Shown here in pieces: positions 8,731-42,274 of a DNA stretch of 64,000 nucleotides (positions are counted from its first letter, which is position 1; every line of letters starts with the position of its first letter). A program made the translations under genes and the position numbers. Below the pieces are notes generated by a model. It saw nothing but the letters and a program-made list of their open reading frames with translations, was not told the origin of the DNA and made no database searches. This DNA comes from Escherichia coli (GTDB lineage Bacteria > Pseudomonadota > Gammaproteobacteria > Enterobacterales > Enterobacteriaceae), in assembly GCF_030384885.1 (NCBI RefSeq), contig NZ_CP128613.1; one strand, 5' to 3'.

Positions 8731-9232
8731 AACCTGTTCCTTATTCTGTGAACTTCAGGTGACATTAAAGCTTTACTCCTAATGGAGAATCGACGCAATC
8801 CCAACTCAGTCAAACAGGTAAATATTAGTGTGATTATTAGTAAATACAATTAATCAATCACTCTCGGTGATCATATGATTTCAACTGTAATTATAAGAAA
8901 ATATTGTACTGATTCTCCATATTAAACAAGTGGTTAATATATCTAAAACATTTTGTTAACATTAAGTGGGTTGTTGCCTGTCTTTGCCTTTAATCAGTTT
9001 ATTGTGTTGTAAGTGCCTGTTTGTAAATAGATTAACTGATTTTGGATTTGACCAATTATTTATAGCAGATGATTATTTACGGTGAGTTATTTTAACTGTG
9101 CGAAACATCTCATTTCGATTATTACGGTTTCACTTTTGCTTACCATCGGTGTGAAAAACTTTTTAACAGATTGAAATACACCCAAAACAAAAGTATGACT
9201 TATACATTTATGTTAAGTAATTGAGTATTTTA

Positions 9233-9248
9233 TGTGATCTGCATCACA
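9233..9248. promoter_or_regulatory. CRP site of the flhDC class I promoter (TGTGATCTGCATCACA)
   Basis: Perfect CRP consensus palindrome about 270 bp upstream of the flhD ATG, consistent with the known CRP activation site centred near -72 of the flhD promoter. Confidence 0.75.
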
Positions 9249-9314
9249 CATTATTGAAAATCGCAGTACCCCTCCGTTGTATGTGCGTGTAGTGACGAGT
9301 ACAGTTGCGTCGAT

Positions 9315-9512
9315 TTAGGAAAAATCTTAGATAAGTGTAAAGTACCCCCTCTATTTGTAAGGACCTATTAAACCCAATAAGGTGGGGGCTGTTTTATTGC
9401 AGCTTATCGCAACTATTCTAATGCTAATTACTTTTTACCGGGGCTTCCCGGCGACATCACGGGGTGCGGTGAGACCGCATAAAAATAAAGTTGGTTATTC
9501 TGGGTGGGAATA
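9315..9512 (+). promoter_or_regulatory. Long flhDC 5' untranslated leader (approximate)
   Basis: Established knowledge: the flhD transcript starts about 198 nt upstream of the ATG; the CRP site spacing here fits a start near 9312-9315; boundaries approximate. Confidence 0.45.
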
Positions 9513-25901: not shown

Positions 25902-27635
25902 TTACATACGCTCTACTGTCTCAATACCCAGCGTATCCAGGCCCAGCTTCAGCGTCTTCGCCGTCAGTTGTGCCAGTTTCAGACGACTGTTACGCACTTC
26001 TTCGTTTTCTGCGCTGAGGATCGGGCAGTGCTCGTAGAAGCCAGAGAACAGACCGGCCAGATCGTACAGGTAAGCACACATCACGTGCGGCGTGCCTTCA
26101 CGGGCAACCACAGTGAGGGTTTCTTCAAACTGCAGCAGGCGAGCTGCCAGTTGTGCCTCACGATCTTCACGGATGATTACCGGAGCTGCAGCCAGTTGCT
26201 CTTCGTCAATTTCTGCTTTACGGAACACGGACAATACACGCGTGTAAGCATACTGCATGTATGGCGCGGTATTACCCTCAAACGCCAGCATGTTGTCCCA
26301 GTCGAAGATGTAGTCAGTGGTACGGTTTTTGGAGAGATCTGCGTATTTAACCGCACCAATACCAACCGCATTAGCCAGTTTTTCCAGCTCATCGGCTGGC
26401 ATATCCGGGTTCTTCTCTGCCACCAGACGGCGTGCGCGTTCCAGGGCTTCATCCAGCAGATCGGCCAGTTTCACCGTACCGCCAGCACGCGTTTTGAACG
26501 GTTTGCCGTCTTTGCCCAGCATCATGCCGAACATATGATGTTCCAGCGGTACGGATTCCGGCACATAGCCTGCTTTACGGACGATAGCCCACGCCTGCAT
26601 CAGGTGTTGATGCTGGCGGGAGTCGATGTAATACAGCACGCGATCGGCATGCAATGTTTCATAACGATATTTTGCACAGGCGATATCAGTGGTGGTGTAG
26701 AGATAGCCGCCATCTTTCTTCTGAATGATCACGCCCATCGGTTCGCCTTCCTTGTTTTTGAACTCATCAAGGAATACGACGGTTGCGCCTTCGCTTTCTA
26801 CAGCCAGACCTTTGGCTTTGAGATCAGCCACGATACCCGGCAGCATCGGGTTGTACAGGCTTTCGCCCATCACGTCATCACGGGTCAGCGTCACGTTCAA
26901 ACGATCGTAGGTGATCTGGTTCTGCGTCATGGTGATGTCGACCAGTTTGCGCCACATCTCACGGAAGTATTCATCACCGCTTTGCAGTTTTACCACGTAG
27001 TTACGTGCACGCTCAGCGAACGCTTCATCTTCATCGTAATGCTTTTTCGCATCGCGGTAGAAACCTTCAAGATCAGCCAGCTCCATTTCACCGGCATTTT
27101 CCTGCTGCTGCTTTTCCAGCCATGCAATCAGCATACCGAACTGAGTGCCCCAGTCGCCGACGTGGTTTGCGCGAATCACTTTGTGACCGAGGAACTCCAG
27201 AGTACGCACTGCTGCGTCACCAATAATGGTAGAGCGCAGGTGACCGACGTGCATCTCTTTCGCCACGTTTGGCGCAGAGTAGTCAACCACAATGGTCTGT
27301 TTTTCTGGCGTAGCAACACCGAGACGATCGGACGCCAGCGCCTGCTGAACATGTTCAGCCAGGAATGCCGGATCAAGGAAAATGTTGATAAAGCCTGGTC
27401 CGGCGATCTCAACCTTGCTGGCGATACCGTTAAGATCCAGATGAGTCAGCACCTGCTCTGCTAATTGTCGCGGTGCCATACCCAGTTTTTTAGCAACTGC
27501 CATCATGCCGTTAGCCTGATAGTCGCCGAACTGAACTTTTGCTGACTGACGAACCTGCGGTTCGCAATCCGCAGGCGCGCCTGCCGCAATCATGGCCTGA
27601 CGGACTTTTTCTGAGAGAAGAGCCTGAATATTCAC
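25902..27635 (-). CDS. argS: Arginine--tRNA ligase ArgS (577 aa)
   Basis: [43 protein letters not shown]...; HVGH and KMSK-type class I motifs. Confidence 0.97.
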
Positions 27636-27850
27636 CGGAATACCTTACATTGATGAAGCGAGCAAAAATTACCCGCACCAGTTAAAGAAATTAGGGCGGG
27701 AGTATACTGCAAATGGCTGTTTTCGTCAGCAACGTGCGCGTGGCGTATTGCCGTTTTCACCATTGCATCAGAAGTGGCGTGAAATCAGCGGTTGGTTGGC
27801 GCAGGGCAACAGGGTAAATTAACGCTTTTACTGAAAGACGAAGAGTGATT

Positions 27851-28417
27851 ATGGCGAACTGGCAATCTATCGACGAGCTGCAGGATATTGCATCGGATTT
27901 ACCGCGATTTACCCACGCATTAGATGAACTTTCCCGCCGTCTGGGGTTGGATATCACTCCACTGACTGCCGATCACATTTCTTTGCGTTGCCATCAAAAC
28001 GTCACCGCTGAACGCTGGCGTCGCGGGTTTGAACAGTGCGGCGAGCTTTTGTCAGAAAATATGATCAATGGCAGGCCGATTTGTCTGTTTAAATTGCATG
28101 AACCGGTACAGGTTGCGCACTGGCAGTTTTCAATTGTAGAGCTACCGTGGCCTGGGGAAAAACGTTACCCGCACGAAGGTTGGGAACATATTGAAATCGT
28201 TCTGCCAGGTGATCCTGAAACGTTGAATGCCCGTGCGCTGGCATTGCTTTCTGATGAAGGACTCAGCCTTCCGGGGATCTCGGTTAAAACCAGTTCGCCA
28301 AAAGGTGAGCATGAGCGATTACCGAATCCGACACTGGCGGTCACCGATAGCAAAACGACGATTAAATTTCATCCGTGGTCCATTGAAGAGATCGTTGCCA
28401 GCGAGCAGCCGGCGTAA
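27851..28417 (+). CDS. yecM: Uncharacterised protein YecM (188 aa)
   Basis: Track ORF trimmed to the ATG at 27851 (MANWQSIDELQDIASDLPRFTHALDEL...). Confidence 0.88.
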   Translation: MANWQSIDELQDIASDLPRFTHALDELSRRLGLDITPLTADHISLRCHQNVTAERWRRGFEQCGELLSENMINGRPICLFKLHEPVQVAHWQFSIVELPWPGEKRYPHEGWEHIEIVLPGDPETLNARALALLSDEGLSLPGISVKTSSPKGEHERLPNPTLAVTDSKTTIKFHPWSIEEIVASEQPA

Positions 28418-28421
28418 TTAA

Positions 28422-29177
<756 letters not shown>

Positions 29178-29223
29178 TTTTTACCGTTGCATCATGTCGC
29201 CCAATATGATGCTTGCTCGTACC

Positions 29224-29257
29224 AGGCCCCTGCAATTTCAACAGGGGCCTTTTTTTA
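29224..29257 (+). terminator. Rho-independent terminator after cutC
   Basis: Stem aggcccctg/caggggcct, loop caatttcaa, followed by T7. Confidence 0.8.
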
Positions 29258-29562
29258 TCCCCGAGAAGTATAAAAAACGAACGATTTCTGTGATCAGTTG
29301 AGCGCGTGACAGTGCGCATAGCGTTGTGCTAAAAATTTTTATATATTCATATTAATTATGTAATTTAAATTACTAAAACTGACAAATATATATTCTAAAT
29401 AACAACTGGGTTATTCCTTAGCAATTAATGATTACATTGTAATAAATCATATTCTTTATCGATTATTTCAGGCAGTGTTGTGCCGAATTATGCAAGCGGT
29501 CAATTCGTTGTGTATTTAATTATACAATGATTTCGGTGTTCTGGAATTAATTAGAGGAATCT

Positions 29563-30663
29563 ATGCGAGGGAAAAAACGCATTGGGTTATTATTTTTGCT
29601 GATAACGGTTGTGGTTGGTGGCGGCGGGTTATTACTGGCGCAAAAAGCCTTACATAAAACGTCGGATACCGCATTTTGCCTTTCCTGCCACTCGATGAGT
29701 AAACCTTTTGAGGAATATCAGGGAACTGTCCACTTTTCTAACCAGAAAGGGATACGTGCGGAATGTGCCGATTGCCATATTCCAAAGTCAGGGGTGGATT
29801 ATTTATTTGCTAAATTAAAAGCTTCTAAAGATATTTATCATGAATTTGTTAGCGGCAAAATAGACAGTGACGATAAGTTCGAAGCGCATCGTCAGGAAAT
29901 GGCCGAAACAGTATGGAAAGAATTAAAAGCAACTGATTCTGCAACGTGTCGTAGTTGCCATTCTTTTGATGCCATGGATATTGCCTCGCAAAGTGAATCT
30001 GCGCAGAAAATGCATAACAAAGCGCAAAAGGACGGCGAAACCTGCATCGATTGTCATAAAGGCATTGCCCATTTTCCACCAGAAATAAAAATGGATGACA
30101 ACGCGGCGCATGAGCTGGAAAGTCAGGCCGCTACTTCAGTTACCAATGGCGCACATATTTATCCTTTCAAAACTTCTCGCATAGGCGAGCTGGCTACCGT
30201 GAATCCTGGTACCGATCTCACCGTCGTTGATGCCAGTGGCAAACAGCCGATCGTTCTGTTGCAGGGTTATCAAATGCAGGGCAGTGAAAACACGCTCTAC
30301 CTGTCGGCAGGTCAACGGCTGGCGCTAGCCACATTAAGTGAAGAAGGTATCAAGGCGTTAACGGTAAACGGGGAATGGCAGGCTGACGAATACGGCAATC
30401 AATGGCGTCAGGCGTCTTTACAGGGTGTGCTTACCGATCCCGCATTAGCGGACCGTAAACCGCTATGGCAATACGCTGAAAAACTTGACGATACCTATTG
30501 CGCTGGTTGCCATGCCCCTATTGCCTCCGACCATTACACCGTCAATGCATGGCCGTCCATTGCCAAAGGAATGGGTGCGCGAACCAGCATGAGCGAAAAC
30601 GAACTGGACATTTTGACGCGGTACTTCCAGTACAACGCCAAAGATATTACCGAGAAACAGTGA
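29563..30663 (+). CDS. torY: Pentahaem c-type cytochrome TorY (NapC/NirT family; 366 aa)
   Basis: [27 protein letters not shown]...; multiple CxxCH haem motifs; AT-rich promoter region upstream. Confidence 0.93.
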
Positions 30664-30687
30664 TCCTCGTTGATCAGGGAGGAAGTT

Positions 30688-33117
30688 ATGACATTAACAA
30701 GACGTGAATTTATTAAACACAGCGGTATTGCCGCTGGGGCGCTGGTGGTGACATCGGCTGCACCGCTACCCGCATGGGCAGAAGAGAAGGGGGGCAAAAT
30801 CCTCACCGCGGGCCGTTGGGGAGCGATGAACGTAGAAGTGAAGGACGGGAAGATTGTTTCTTCGACAGGCGCGCTGGCGAAAACCATACCGAACTCCTTA
30901 CAGTCTACGGCGGCGGATCAGGTACATACAACGGCGCGTATTCAGCATCCGATGGTGAGAAAAAGCTATCTCGATAATCCACTACAACCGGCGAAAGGTC
31001 GTGGCGAAGATACTTATGTACAGGTGAGCTGGGAACAAGCATTAAAACTTATTCATGAGCAACACGATCGCATTCGCAAAGCTAACGGACCATCGGCCAT
31101 TTTTGCCGGATCTTACGGCTGGCGCTCTTCTGGCGTGTTACATAAAGCGCAAACCTTACTGCAACGTTATATGAATCTTGCGGGCGGTTATTCAGGGCAT
31201 AGCGGCGATTATTCAACCGGGGCGGCACAGGTAATCATGCCGCACGTGGTGGGTTCCGTGGAGGTGTATGAACAGCAGACCTCCTGGCCACTGATTCTGG
31301 AAAACAGTCAGGTGGTGGTGTTGTGGGGGATGAACCCGCTGAATACCTTAAAAATTGCCTGGAGCAGTACCGATGAGCAAGGGCTGGAATACTTCCATCA
31401 GCTGAAAAAATCTGGCAAACCAGTGATTGCCATTGATCCTATCCGCTCCGAAACCATCGAATTCTTTGGCGACAATGCTACCTGGATCGCGCCAAATATG
31501 GGCACCGACGTGGCGCTGATGTTGGGGATTGCACATACCCTGATGACACTAGGCAAACACGATAAAGTGTTCCTTGAAAAATACACCACCGGGTATCCGC
31601 AGTTTGAAGAGTATCTGACAGGTAAGAGCGATAATACGCCGAAGAGCGCGGCCTGGGCGGCGGAAATTACTGGCGTAGCGGAAGCGCAGATAGTCAAACT
31701 CGCTGAACTGATGGCGGCAAATCGCACAATGCTGATGGCAGGCTGGGGAATTCAGCGCCAGCAATATGGTGAACAGAAACACTGGATGCTGGTGACGCTG
31801 GCGGCGATGTTAGGGCAGATTGGTACACCGGGCGGCGGGTTTGGTTTCTCTTATCATTACTCAAACGGTGGCAACCCGACGCGTGTTGGCGGAGTGCTGC
31901 CGGAAATGTCTGCGGCGATTGCCGGACAGGCCAGCGAGGCCGCTGATGATGGCGGAATGACGGCGATTCCTGTTGCCCGTATCGTCGATGCGCTGGAAAA
32001 TCCTGGCGGCAAATATCAGCATAACGGTAAAGAACAAACGTATCCGAATATCAAAATGATCTGGTGGGCGGGTGGCGGTAACTTTACCCATCACCAGGAT
32101 ACTAATCGTCTGATTAAAGCATGGCAGAAACCGGAGATGATCGTCGTTTCTGAATGCTACTGGACCGCAGCTGCTAAACATGCAGATATCGTATTACCGA
32201 TCACCACATCGTTTGAGCGCAATGACTTGACGATGACCGGTGATTACAGCAACCAGCATATTGTACCGATGAAGCAGGCTGTCGCTCCGCAATTTGAAGC
32301 GCGTAACGATTTTGATGTGTTTGCCGATCTTGCTGAATTACTCAAACCTGGCGGAAAAGAGATCTATACCGAAGGTAGAGATGAAATGGCGTGGCTGAAA
32401 TTTTTCTATGATGCCGCTCAGAAAGGTGCGCGTGCGCAACGCGTGACTATGCCGATGTTTAATGCTTTCTGGCAGCAAAATAAACTGATCGAAATGCGCC
32501 GCAGCGAGAAGAACGAACAGTACGTTCGTTATGCTGATTTCCGCGCCGATCCGGTGAAAAATGCGCTGGGTACGCCAAGCGGCAAAATTGAGATTTACTC
32601 CAAAACGCTGGAAAAATTTGGCTATAAGGATTGCCCGGCACACCCAACCTGGCTTGCGCCTGATGAGTGGAAAGGTTCCGCCGACGAGAAGCAGTTGCAG
32701 CTTCTGACCGCACATCCGGCACACCGTTTACACAGTCAGCTTAACTATGCGGAACTGCGTAAAAAATATGCGGTTGCCGATCGTGAACCGATCACTATTC
32801 ACACCGAAGATGCTGCTCGCTTTGGTATTGCGAATGGCGATCTGGTGCGTGTCTGGAACAAACGTGGTCAGATTCTGACAGGCGCGGTGGTGACTGACGG
32901 GATCAAAAAAGGCGTGGTATGCGTGCATGAAGGTGCATGGCCAGATCTGGAAAATGGCTTGTGTAAAAACGGCAGTGCGAACGTGTTAACGGCGGATATC
33001 CCCAGCTCTCAGCTGGCAAATGCCTGTGCCGGTAACTCTGCGCTGGTGTATATCGAAAAATATACGGGCAATGCACCGAAGTTAACGGCGTTTGATCAGC
33101 CAGCTGTTCAGGCATAA
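30688..33117 (+). CDS. torZ: Trimethylamine-N-oxide reductase 2, TorZ (molybdoenzyme; 809 aa)
   Basis: Track ORF trimmed to the ATG at 30688 with RBS GGGAGGAAG; twin-arginine signal [21 protein letters not shown]. Confidence 0.93.
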
Positions 33118-33126
33118 GACGTGAAA

Positions 33127-33146
33127 AGCGCCCGGAAACGGGCGCT
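33127..33146. terminator. GC-rich hairpin after torZ (agcgcccg-gaaa-cgggcgct); putative terminator
   Basis: Perfect 8-bp stem; weak U-run on either strand. Confidence 0.4.
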
Positions 33147-33167
33147 GAGGTTATGCAAACGTAAAAC

Positions 33168-33272
33168 TGCCTGATGCGCTATGCTTATCAGACCTACATA
33201 GTCCCTGCAACATATTGAATTAAAAAGGCTTTGTAGGCCGGATAAGGCGTTCACGCCGCATCCGGCAGTAAT
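33168..33272. repeat. REP/BIME elements between torZ and cmoB
   Basis: gcctgatgcgctatgcttatcagacctac ... gtaggccggataaggcgttcacgccgcatccggca: canonical REP units. Confidence 0.75.
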
Positions 33273-33281
33273 ACCAGACCT

Positions 33282-35429
<2,148 letters not shown>

Positions 35430-40716: not shown

Positions 40717-41319
40717 TTATACCGCCTCAGTCAATTCAGGCTGAGGCGTTTCTACTCCCTCCGCATGAATCAACACCAAACCCGGATGATGCCACAAACT
40801 GGCTGGTGTTACGGTTTTACGCTCCCACGGAATCGAACCTAAAAACCAGAATTTCCAGAAAGTGAGTTTTGCGTTCGGATTGCTATTTAGCAGTTCTCCA
40901 AACGTCTCTATTTCACCCACCGGAATACATAACGCCTCTTTATAAATATCAAAAACGAATTTTGAGCAGAACTGGCGGGAAGATTCGTATTTAAAGCCGG
41001 TGTGGTAGAGCTTATGCAACCGTCCGGGGACCTTTTCGACCAGAGCAAGTTTTTGCTCTGCGGTTAAACCTCCTGCGAGGCGGCGAACACCGTAGCGTTG
41101 ATCGGTCGACCGTTCAATAAATCGTGACAAAGTTGTGATTGTGGAGAGCGGAACTCGACTCTCCGCAACCAGGTAATCATCACCGTCATGTCCGATGATT
41201 ATCCCCACATGGTTGCTCCAGCATTTCGAGGCTGCAGAGATTTGCCCAAACAGGCGAGCACCGATGCAGGTAAAAACAATATCACCGGTTTCATATTTAG
41301 CTGGGTAATTTATTTTCAC
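40717..41319 (-). CDS. yebB: Uncharacterised protein YebB (200 aa)
   Basis: [46 protein letters not shown]...; convergent with ruvC with 1 nt between the stop codons. Confidence 0.88.
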
Positions 41320-41412
41320 TATATCAATCCATTATTTATATATAAAACAGCATCTATCTTTCGTGATGGTAAAGCATTAGCATTGTATTATAATAATGAC
41401 AAGGAATGTTTT

Positions 41413-42237
41413 ATGCGGTTATTTATTAATGTGATAATTATAGTTTCGATCAGTCAATGCGTGAATGTATTTGCTCAAGATAATGTCATCCGCTATCCCT
41501 GGCGATATGGACGTATTTCTTTAAATGAGAATAATGAGTTTGTGCCTCAAATTATTCATATGCGTGATGATATCTACGGCGTGGGTGAAGCTGGTGCAAG
41601 CCTTAACGATGCGAGAATGGCGCAAAGTGGTGTCGCCGTGAGGCTTAGCGTTATACAGCAGGGGCAGGTGGTGAATGCTTTACTGGATTTCTACAATAGC
41701 AATAATCAACCTGCTTATATCTTTGAAGGTGGTTTGATGCCTTGCAATAAAGCCTTTGACATCACAACAAGCAACATTGTCCTTGATGGGATGTGTGGAA
41801 TTTATGATGGGGTCGATGGCTGGCAAGTTATTCCTGCGGGTGATCATTATAAAGAATCATTTTCACTCACTCAGGCTTTTGAATTTCTGCCGGGAAAACA
41901 TCATTATAAAATTAATGCCGGAAGTTTTATCATCAGAGTCGGGGATGATATTTTTGCAAGAGAGGACGCCGAAAGCATTCTTTTTGATTTGATTAACTGG
42001 CGATATGGCTATGTGCTAAAAAGTTATGAAAGGGTGTCGAAGTGGGATTTAATGGCAGGGACTTATGTACTGCCTGAATACTCGGGGGATAAAAGAATGG
42101 ATGAGTATCGAATTTACTCAAACCAGGTGTCGATTGATCTTAATGGTGACGAGTTAGCACATACGGAGTCCTATCAGTGGCGAATTGATAGCGGAATGAT
42201 CCCGGAAAAATTCAGCGTTCAGGAACTCGCTGAATGA
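41413..42237 (+). CDS. Hypothetical secreted/periplasmic protein (274 aa), function unknown; first gene of an AT-rich islet
   Basis: Track ORF 41188-42237 trimmed to the ATG at 41413 because the upstream part overlaps yebB on the opposite strand and 41413 has an RBS (AAGGAA); N-terminus MRLFINVIIIVSISQCVNVFA|QDN looks like a Sec signal peptide; hand-counted G+C about 38-40%; no recognised family. Confidence 0.65.
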   Translation: MRLFINVIIIVSISQCVNVFAQDNVIRYPWRYGRISLNENNEFVPQIIHMRDDIYGVGEAGASLNDARMAQSGVAVRLSVIQQGQVVNALLDFYNSNNQPAYIFEGGLMPCNKAFDITTSNIVLDGMCGIYDGVDGWQVIPAGDHYKESFSLTQAFEFLPGKHHYKINAGSFIIRVGDDIFAREDAESILFDLINWRYGYVLKSYERVSKWDLMAGTYVLPEYSGDKRMDEYRIYSNQVSIDLNGDELAHTESYQWRIDSGMIPEKFSVQELAE

Positions 42238-42274
42238 ATCGTCCTCTACCTGCTTGCCAGATACAGAGGCGCGG

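Follow-up and report, generated by a model that had tools for sequence, protein, structure and literature searches.

The torYZ operon of Escherichia coli, encoding a pentahaem c-type cytochrome (TorY) and a periplasmic S-/N-oxide reductase (TorZ), is preceded by a spacer very rich in A and T, and this locus raises the question of what the AT-rich DNA does: is it a promoter region silenced by nucleoid proteins, as the original prediction held, an intrinsically weak promoter, the target of a dedicated activator, or a sequence of no function? The question was addressed in a stretch of 64,000 nucleotides of the E. coli chromosome (referred to as the window), whose coordinates are used throughout unless stated otherwise.

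Genomic setting of the torY upstream spacer

E. coli strain 2013C-4282 differed from the first 50 kb of the window by only 9 mismatches, and the RefSeq annotation of that strain could therefore be transferred one-to-one to window coordinates. The corresponding spacer of K-12 MG1655 shared 97% identity with that of the window; thus, data obtained with K-12 are directly applicable here. By the transferred annotation, the upstream neighbour is cutC (nt 28431-29177, + strand). The gene for the small RNA MicL (nt 28949-29256, + strand) starts within cutC and has its 3' end and terminator in the cutC 3' UTR. MicL was identified by a match to Rfam family RF02654 (365.8 bits, full model 1-308), and micL is annotated at the homologous position in K-12. 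The intrinsic terminator common to MicL and cutC, as read from the sequence, occupies nt 29224-29256 (+ strand) and consists of the stem AGGCCCCTG...CAGGGGCCT followed by a run of 7 T residues.

The region of nt 29258-29562 begins 2 nt past this terminator and runs to the ATG of torY at nt 29563; it is the control region of the torYZ operon, in which torY (nt 29563-30663, + strand) is followed by torZ (nt 30688-33117, + strand). Downstream of the operon, cmoB (nt 33282-34253) lies on the - strand. The segment between torZ and cmoB (nt 33118-33281) contains a terminator hairpin and REP-type elements, adjoins the cmoB stop codon, and forms the right end of an indel of about 4 kb described below. 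The hairpin, GCGCCCGGAAACGGGCGC, is GC-rich and located 3' of torZ; the sequences between it and the cmoB stop, for example GCCGGATAAGGCGTTCACGCCGCATCCGGCA, are presumably REP-type, judged by the REP consensus.

Of 5426 complete E. coli genomes, 5424 matched the 601 bases around nt 29258-29562, in every case in the interval from cutC to torY, indicating that the locus is core and not accessory. About 25 of the 5424 records covered less than 80% of the cutC-torY region. In the one examined, strain E400634, an element of the IS200/IS605 family, approximately 705 bp in length, was inserted exactly after the T-run of the MicL terminator (29256/29257), where the torYZ indel has its left boundary, with the AT-rich core downstream of the element.

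Base composition

That about 300 bp upstream of torYZ are strongly AT-rich, as originally predicted, was confirmed: the GC content was 30.5% for nt 29258-29562 versus 50.4% for the window, and a value as low as this was found in just 0.5% of the 305-bp segments of the 64 kb. The tract contained twelve runs of at least 6 nt consisting only of A and T, the longest being 18 nt; the A/T-run sequence quoted with the prediction was located at nt 29331-29400. TpA density was 0.115 in the tract versus 0.043 in the window, a 2.7-fold difference. The AT-richness was unevenly distributed, with an ordinary GC content of 48.6% for nt 29258-29329 versus 24.9% for the core (nt 29330-29562). The core was the segment of lowest GC content among all 233-bp segments in the 64 kb, and the sole one at or below 27%; within it, nt 29330-29400 had a GC content of 9.9%. 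The first 500 bp of torY had 42.4% GC.

Among the 21 annotated spacers of at least 60 bp in the first 50 kb, the cutC-torY spacer (33.8% GC) ranked as the second most AT-rich and was comparable in GC content to the spacers uspC-flhD (nt 8731-9512, 34.9%) and ftnB-araF (nt 1559-2354, 35.4%), two other AT-rich stretches of the window. Further AT-rich stretches were the short znuC-znuA spacer (nt 46342-46419, 30.8% GC) and a segment at the yebB end (nt 41167-41631), where this strain has two hypothetical genes (nt 41188-42859) between ruvC and ruvA.

Occupancy by H-NS and RNA polymerase

Binding of H-NS to this part of the chromosome has been recorded by ChIP-chip in MG1655, with regions at 1955116-1956791 under anaerobic and 1954944-1958210 under aerobic conditions in U00096.2 coordinates (Myers 2013, PMC3688515, Table S3). 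For conversion, an offset of 1976 from U00096.2 to U00096.3 was derived from the annotations of K-12 and the window; it was checked with the sigma70 peak assigned to aspS/yecD in the same study (1948653), which falls in its own spacer only after 1976 is added. The converted H-NS regions correspond to approximately nt 28928-30603 (anaerobic) and 27509-30775 (aerobic) of the window, and under both growth conditions they take in micL, the entire spacer, and nearly all of torY. The torY-cutC spacer is also a genomic-SELEX site of the RpoD holoenzyme, marked together with an H-NS SELEX site (Shimada 2014, PMC3946193), and a genomic-SELEX site of the RpoS (sigmaS) holoenzyme lies in the same spacer (Shimada 2017, PMC5493296). 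H-NS occupancy, whose lack would have spoken against the original prediction, is thus present over the spacer both as ChIP-chip regions and as a SELEX site.

The tract had been described as typical of promoters silenced by H-NS or Fis. The H-NS part of this description agrees with the published occupancy; the Fis part is supported by no more than a single core-like Fis match in the spacer (at nt 29381). The sequence TCGATAAATT, reportedly the motif at which H-NS nucleates with high affinity, had two overlapping matches with 2 mismatches each, at nt 29453 (- strand) and 29459 (+ strand); the best of its matches was TCGATTATTT (nt 29459-29468, + strand, 2 mismatches). Since the density of such matches was not above the background of the window, they are weak evidence. 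For IHF, a ChIP-chip region corresponding to approximately nt 28242-29270 touches only the first 13 nt or so of nt 29258-29562 (Myers 2013, PMC3688515).

In the anaerobic sigma70 ChIP-seq table (Myers 2013, PMC3688515), no peak is listed for the torY upstream spacer; the nearest peaks of this table lie at the torY 3' end (about nt 30600) and within the yecM/argS spacer. Selection of the spacer by the holoenzyme in vitro, together with the lack of a listed anaerobic sigma70 peak where H-NS is bound, suggests occlusion of RNA polymerase and not a lack of affinity. The peak at about nt 30600 (1955119 in U00096.2) is labelled torZ in the same table (PMC3688515) and is 88 nt upstream of the torZ ATG; it coincides with an edge of the anaerobic H-NS region, and a consensus scan around this position gave no promoter-like site. 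It may represent an internal torZ promoter or a spurious one.

Promoter-like sequences and other elements of the spacer

The left part of the spacer (nt 29257-29329, 48.6% GC) holds the -35 hexamer of the promoter GTGACA-18-TAAAAA (nt 29306-29335, + strand), which was predicted to be the best sigma70 promoter of this spacer for the RpoD holoenzyme SELEX site (Shimada 2014, PMC3946193). Its -10 hexamer TAAAAA was invariant among the Escherichia species, whereas the -35 hexamer GTGACA was not conserved. Near the other end of the spacer, a -10-like hexamer, TACAAT (nt 29523-29528, + strand), is situated 35 nt upstream of the ATG and lacks a good -35 partner; two other Escherichia lineages have TATAAT at this place in the alignment. 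No + strand site was found in a consensus promoter scan of the spacer. With a sigma70 position weight matrix, promoter-like sites scoring above the 99.9th percentile numbered 11 on the + strand and 10 on the - strand versus 2.1 expected, which for the AT-rich core is about five times the background density; the matrix scores are indicative only. Judged from these scans, the spacer appears to carry many weak, overlapping promoter candidates and no single strong one, the best matrix candidates all being weak, and any position assigned to the true torYZ promoter is putative.

The AT-rich core (nt 29330-29562) is the torYZ regulatory region and lies within the published H-NS ChIP-chip regions. It starts with a hyper-AT block (nt 29330-29400) containing a perfect palindrome of 14 bp, GTAATTTAAATTAC, at nt 29360-29373. 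Further downstream, an island richer in GC, TTTCAGGCAGTGTTGTGCC (nt 29466-29484, 52.6% GC), is embedded in the core and may serve as the binding site of a specific protein.

Elements other than promoters were also sought. No open reading frame of at least 20 amino acids was present in nt 29320-29560, the folding z-score of the AT core as RNA was not unusual (-0.02), and the Rfam matches within the 3 kb scanned, namely MicL and a sub-threshold match over the terminator, ended at nt 29256 with none past the terminator. A structured RNA leader, a small RNA, and a small ORF in the spacer were rejected on these grounds. Three short direct repeats, each with two copies, were observed within the spacer; the first copy of the pair AGYGTTGTGC was not conserved, and this pair was therefore treated as a chance occurrence.

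Insertion between cutC and cmoB

When species-representative genomes were scanned with TorY, torYZ was found beside cutC/cmoB only in Escherichia, namely in the E. coli-like clades, E. whittamii, E. sp. E1V33, and E. albertii; of the last, a short contig shows the cmoB side only. In E. fergusonii, Salmonella enterica, and Citrobacter koseri, the convergent cmoB follows cutC directly, at a distance of 80-235 bp. The MicL terminator was identical through the T-run in these three species and the sequences diverged immediately after it, indicating that the AT-rich tract is the left end of an indel of about 4.0 kb (about nt 29260-33284). With the right boundary set by comparison with E. fergusonii, the indel comprises the spacer, torY, torZ, the terminator, and the REP-type elements.

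Neither direct nor inverted repeats of more than 8 nt were found to link the two ends of the indel, and the 8-mers shared by them were at chance; a mobile-element signature was therefore rejected. The next relatives of torYZ, with TorY about 60% and TorZ about 78% identical, are located in other genomic contexts. Acquisition of the operon looks old, since the GC content of torYZ is near normal apart from the 5' part of torY.

In E. fergusonii, the cutC-cmoB spacer is 80 bp in length (L037, 5748-5827) and the cmoB stop lies a few bases from the T-run of the MicL terminator, so that a single hairpin probably terminates both convergent transcripts, cutC/MicL and cmoB. Among the sequences carrying torYZ, contig NZ_JAATUR010000018.1, a GTDB representative labelled E. 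coli SCPM-O-B-8794, shared with the window approximately 90-92% nucleotide identity across torYZ and 0.66-0.73 at 4-fold degenerate sites; being far more divergent than K-12, this strain probably belongs to a cryptic Escherichia clade and not to E. coli proper.

Sequence conservation within Escherichia

Conservation was assessed by comparison of five sequences, with the 4-fold degenerate sites of torY and torZ, at which identity to the other Escherichia species was 0.50-0.77, serving as the neutral reference. The left block of the spacer (nt 29257-29329) evolved at about this neutral rate, with identities of 0.52-0.68. The hyper-AT block (nt 29330-29400) was conserved above neutral, at 0.83-0.93 across Escherichia; for E. 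albertii, the binomial p against the pooled 4-fold rate of 0.56 was about 1e-6. Identities of 0.84-1.00 were observed for the island TTTCAGGCAGTGTTGTGCC, with no difference among four Escherichia lineages and 84% identity in E. albertii. Conservation of the core thus exceeds what H-NS binding or AT-richness would need, which suggests that it contains real promoter or operator elements.

Regulatory sites in Escherichia and other genera

In Citrobacter, Trabulsiella, and Entomohabitans, each of the 15 loci had an FNR box with 0-1 mismatch upstream of torY. The box was about 80 nt from the ATG in 14 loci, and in 14 of the 15 it was followed, 43 nt downstream, by a NarL/P 7-2-7 site with 0-2 mismatches. 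Within the 300 nt upstream of torY in the window and four other Escherichia sequences, the best match to the FNR box TTGAT-N4-ATCAA had 3 mismatches, and the best matches to the NarL/NarP 7-2-7 site (TACYYMT-NN-AKRRGTA) had 3-4 mismatches in all five sequences. A promoter of the FNR/NarL-NarP type was therefore rejected for Escherichia, both boxes being missing in 5 of 5 sequences.

The tor boxes (CTGTTCATAT) were represented in the spacer by a single decamer with 2 mismatches at nt 29343; across the window, 60 such decamers were found versus 50 expected by chance. A TorR-dependent promoter of the torCAD type was rejected because these matches are at chance level. Motifs of CRP and IHF and an ArcA-like repeat were absent from the spacer or at chance level, and no IHF core with 1 mismatch or fewer was found in it. 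A weak GalR site has been reported for the spacer from in-silico work in the literature; its score is far below those of true operators.

AT-richness upstream of torY proved to be common across the Enterobacterales genera sampled, with approximately 22-39% GC over 300 nt in differing contexts. Homology of the Citrobacter-type upstream regions to the Escherichia spacer was also rejected, just short, non-colinear AT-rich matches having been found between them.

Expression of torYZ and explanations for the AT-rich tract

The claim that torYZ is poorly expressed is in accord with the literature, expression being low and constant according to Gon et al. 2000 as cited by Ravcheev 2007. When hns and stpA were both mutated, a new FNR peak appeared within torZ and torZ expression was 2-fold higher anaerobically, a borderline rise that was confined to the double mutant and linked to the FNR peak inside torZ; torZ was grouped by Myers et al. 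with temperature-responsive genes unmasked in hns stpA, such as hlyE (PMC3688515). Both the H-NS occupancy and the low expression of torYZ were already contained in published genome-wide tables, and an AT-rich, H-NS-bound tract is an ordinary feature of a very common kind.

An H-NS-silenced control region of torYZ is probably the best explanation of the tract. Several weak, overlapping promoter-like sequences in the spacer, which can be bound in vitro by sigma70 and sigmaS RNA polymerase, lie in vivo under an extended H-NS region that takes in the AT-rich core and the first 500 bp of torY, which are also fairly AT-rich. H-NS, probably with StpA, coats this region in the cell and would thereby keep RNA polymerase off. 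The Escherichia spacer also lacks the FNR and NarL/NarP sites that precede torYZ in related genera, and the H-NS coating and the missing FNR/Nar inputs would together result in the constant, very low expression. The Escherichia-specific insertion of about 4 kb is the kind of lineage-specific DNA that is usually targeted by H-NS. The low expression is likely to be a consequence of H-NS occupancy. Points against silencing are that TCGATAAATT was matched only at 2 mismatches and was not enriched, that the sole expression datum is the borderline 2-fold rise, for torZ and not torY, in hns stpA, and, for H-NS acting alone, that the core is more conserved than its binding requires.

Part of this evidence bears on a simpler possibility, that the promoter is intrinsically weak and without an activator and that H-NS binding is a passive result of AT-richness. 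This is partly compatible with silencing, and it would account for the lack of a + strand consensus site, the weak matrix candidates, the unconserved -35 hexamer of the SELEX-predicted promoter, and the absence from all Escherichia sequences of the FNR/Nar boxes present in the Citrobacter group, as well as for a change of only 2-fold, seen for torZ, in hns stpA. The holoenzyme alone nevertheless selects the spacer in vitro, yet the anaerobic table lists no sigma70 peak there in vivo under H-NS, and weakness of the promoter by itself is rather unlikely to be the explanation. It is very improbable that Fis or IHF, rather than H-NS, dominates control: the Fis core-like match at nt 29381 and the first 13 nt or so touched by the IHF ChIP-chip region could be cited for them, but an IHF core with 1 mismatch or fewer is lacking and the IHF region lies over cutC and micL, off the AT-rich core.

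Conservation of the core bears on two other possibilities. The conserved blocks, nt 29330-29400 with GTAATTTAAATTAC and the island TTTCAGGCAGTGTTGTGCC, might be operators of a dedicated activator or anti-silencer, by which torYZ would be switched on under oxidative or copper stress with H-NS setting only a low baseline. In uropathogenic E. coli, torZ transcript levels rose 4-fold with HOCl, 6-fold with copper, and 3-fold with paraquat (2025 study, PMC12096835), indicating that the promoter is not simply shut, and identities of 0.83-1.00 in the blocks versus about 0.5-0.77 at neutral sites fit such operators. Against them, boxes for FNR, NarL/P, CRP, IHF, ArcA-like regulators, and TorR are absent or at chance, the GalR site is weak, the sequences compared number five, and the induction concerns transcript levels. 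A stress-responsive promoter of this kind, which would be partly complementary to silencing, is conceivable but tentative, for the proposed operators and for the proposed stress switch alike. The same conservation makes it most improbable that the tract is a functionless relic, either a remnant of foreign DNA or the integration scar left by the arrival of torYZ. Its exact coincidence with the left edge of the Escherichia-specific indel would suit a scar, but conservation well above neutral is seen in the core and not in the adjacent nt 29257-29329, the indel ends share no direct or inverted repeat above 8 nt, and AT-rich regions (about 22-39% GC) occur upstream of torY across genera in different contexts. 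Silencing by H-NS is retained as the preferred reading. A more speculative extension, at present doubtful, is that an ancestral torYZ promoter of the FNR/NarL type was replaced in Escherichia by an H-NS-coated hyper-AT region with an anti-silencing switch, comprising the conserved block of nt 29330-29400 with GTAATTTAAATTAC and the invariant island TTTCAGGCAGTGTTGTGCC, that responds to oxidative, chlorine, or copper stress and not to anaerobiosis.

Comparison with known systems

The torYZ control region resembles the H-NS-covered, lineage-specific promoters of hlyE and bgl, and the uspC-flhD region of the window, in being strongly AT-rich and TpA-dense, in having an extended H-NS ChIP region that spreads into adjoining coding DNA, and in combining weak promoter-like sequences on both strands with a lineage-specific insertion and low basal expression. 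It differs from the hlyE/bgl class in that torYZ itself has a near-normal GC content apart from the 5' part of torY and the locus is core in E. coli. We know of no anti-silencer of the SlyA, LeuO, or BglJ type for torY.

The E. coli torCAD promoter drives the paralogous TMAO reductase system, but it is TorR-dependent and induced by TMAO via four tor boxes (CTGTTCATAT), in contrast to the one 2-mismatch decamer of the torYZ spacer; torYZ is reportedly not induced by TMAO. The operons of Citrobacter, Trabulsiella, and Entomohabitans are the same as that of Escherichia (TorY about 60%, TorZ about 78% identity) and likewise have AT-rich upstream regions (about 29-39% GC over 300 nt). However, their promoters possess a canonical FNR box and a NarL/P 7-2-7 site, mostly at about 80 nt and about 37 nt upstream of the ATG, whereas the Escherichia upstream region lacks both, has no detectable homology to theirs, and occupies another genomic location. 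Regulation of torYZ by FNR, ArcA, and NarP has been predicted in Pasteurellaceae and Vibrionaceae (Ravcheev 2007).

The present comparison adds details and not a new phenomenon: the indel has its edge right at the MicL terminator, FNR/Nar boxes are missing, and blocks of the core are conserved above neutral. The tract offers targets for asking why E. coli keeps a near-silent third TMAO/methionine-sulfoxide reductase and what activates it; beyond a tidy annotation, the significance is small. Outside Escherichia, one genome of Leminorella grimontii carried two separate torYZ loci on different scaffolds, and copy b had a perfect match to the NarL/P 7-2-7 site about 270 nt upstream of torY.
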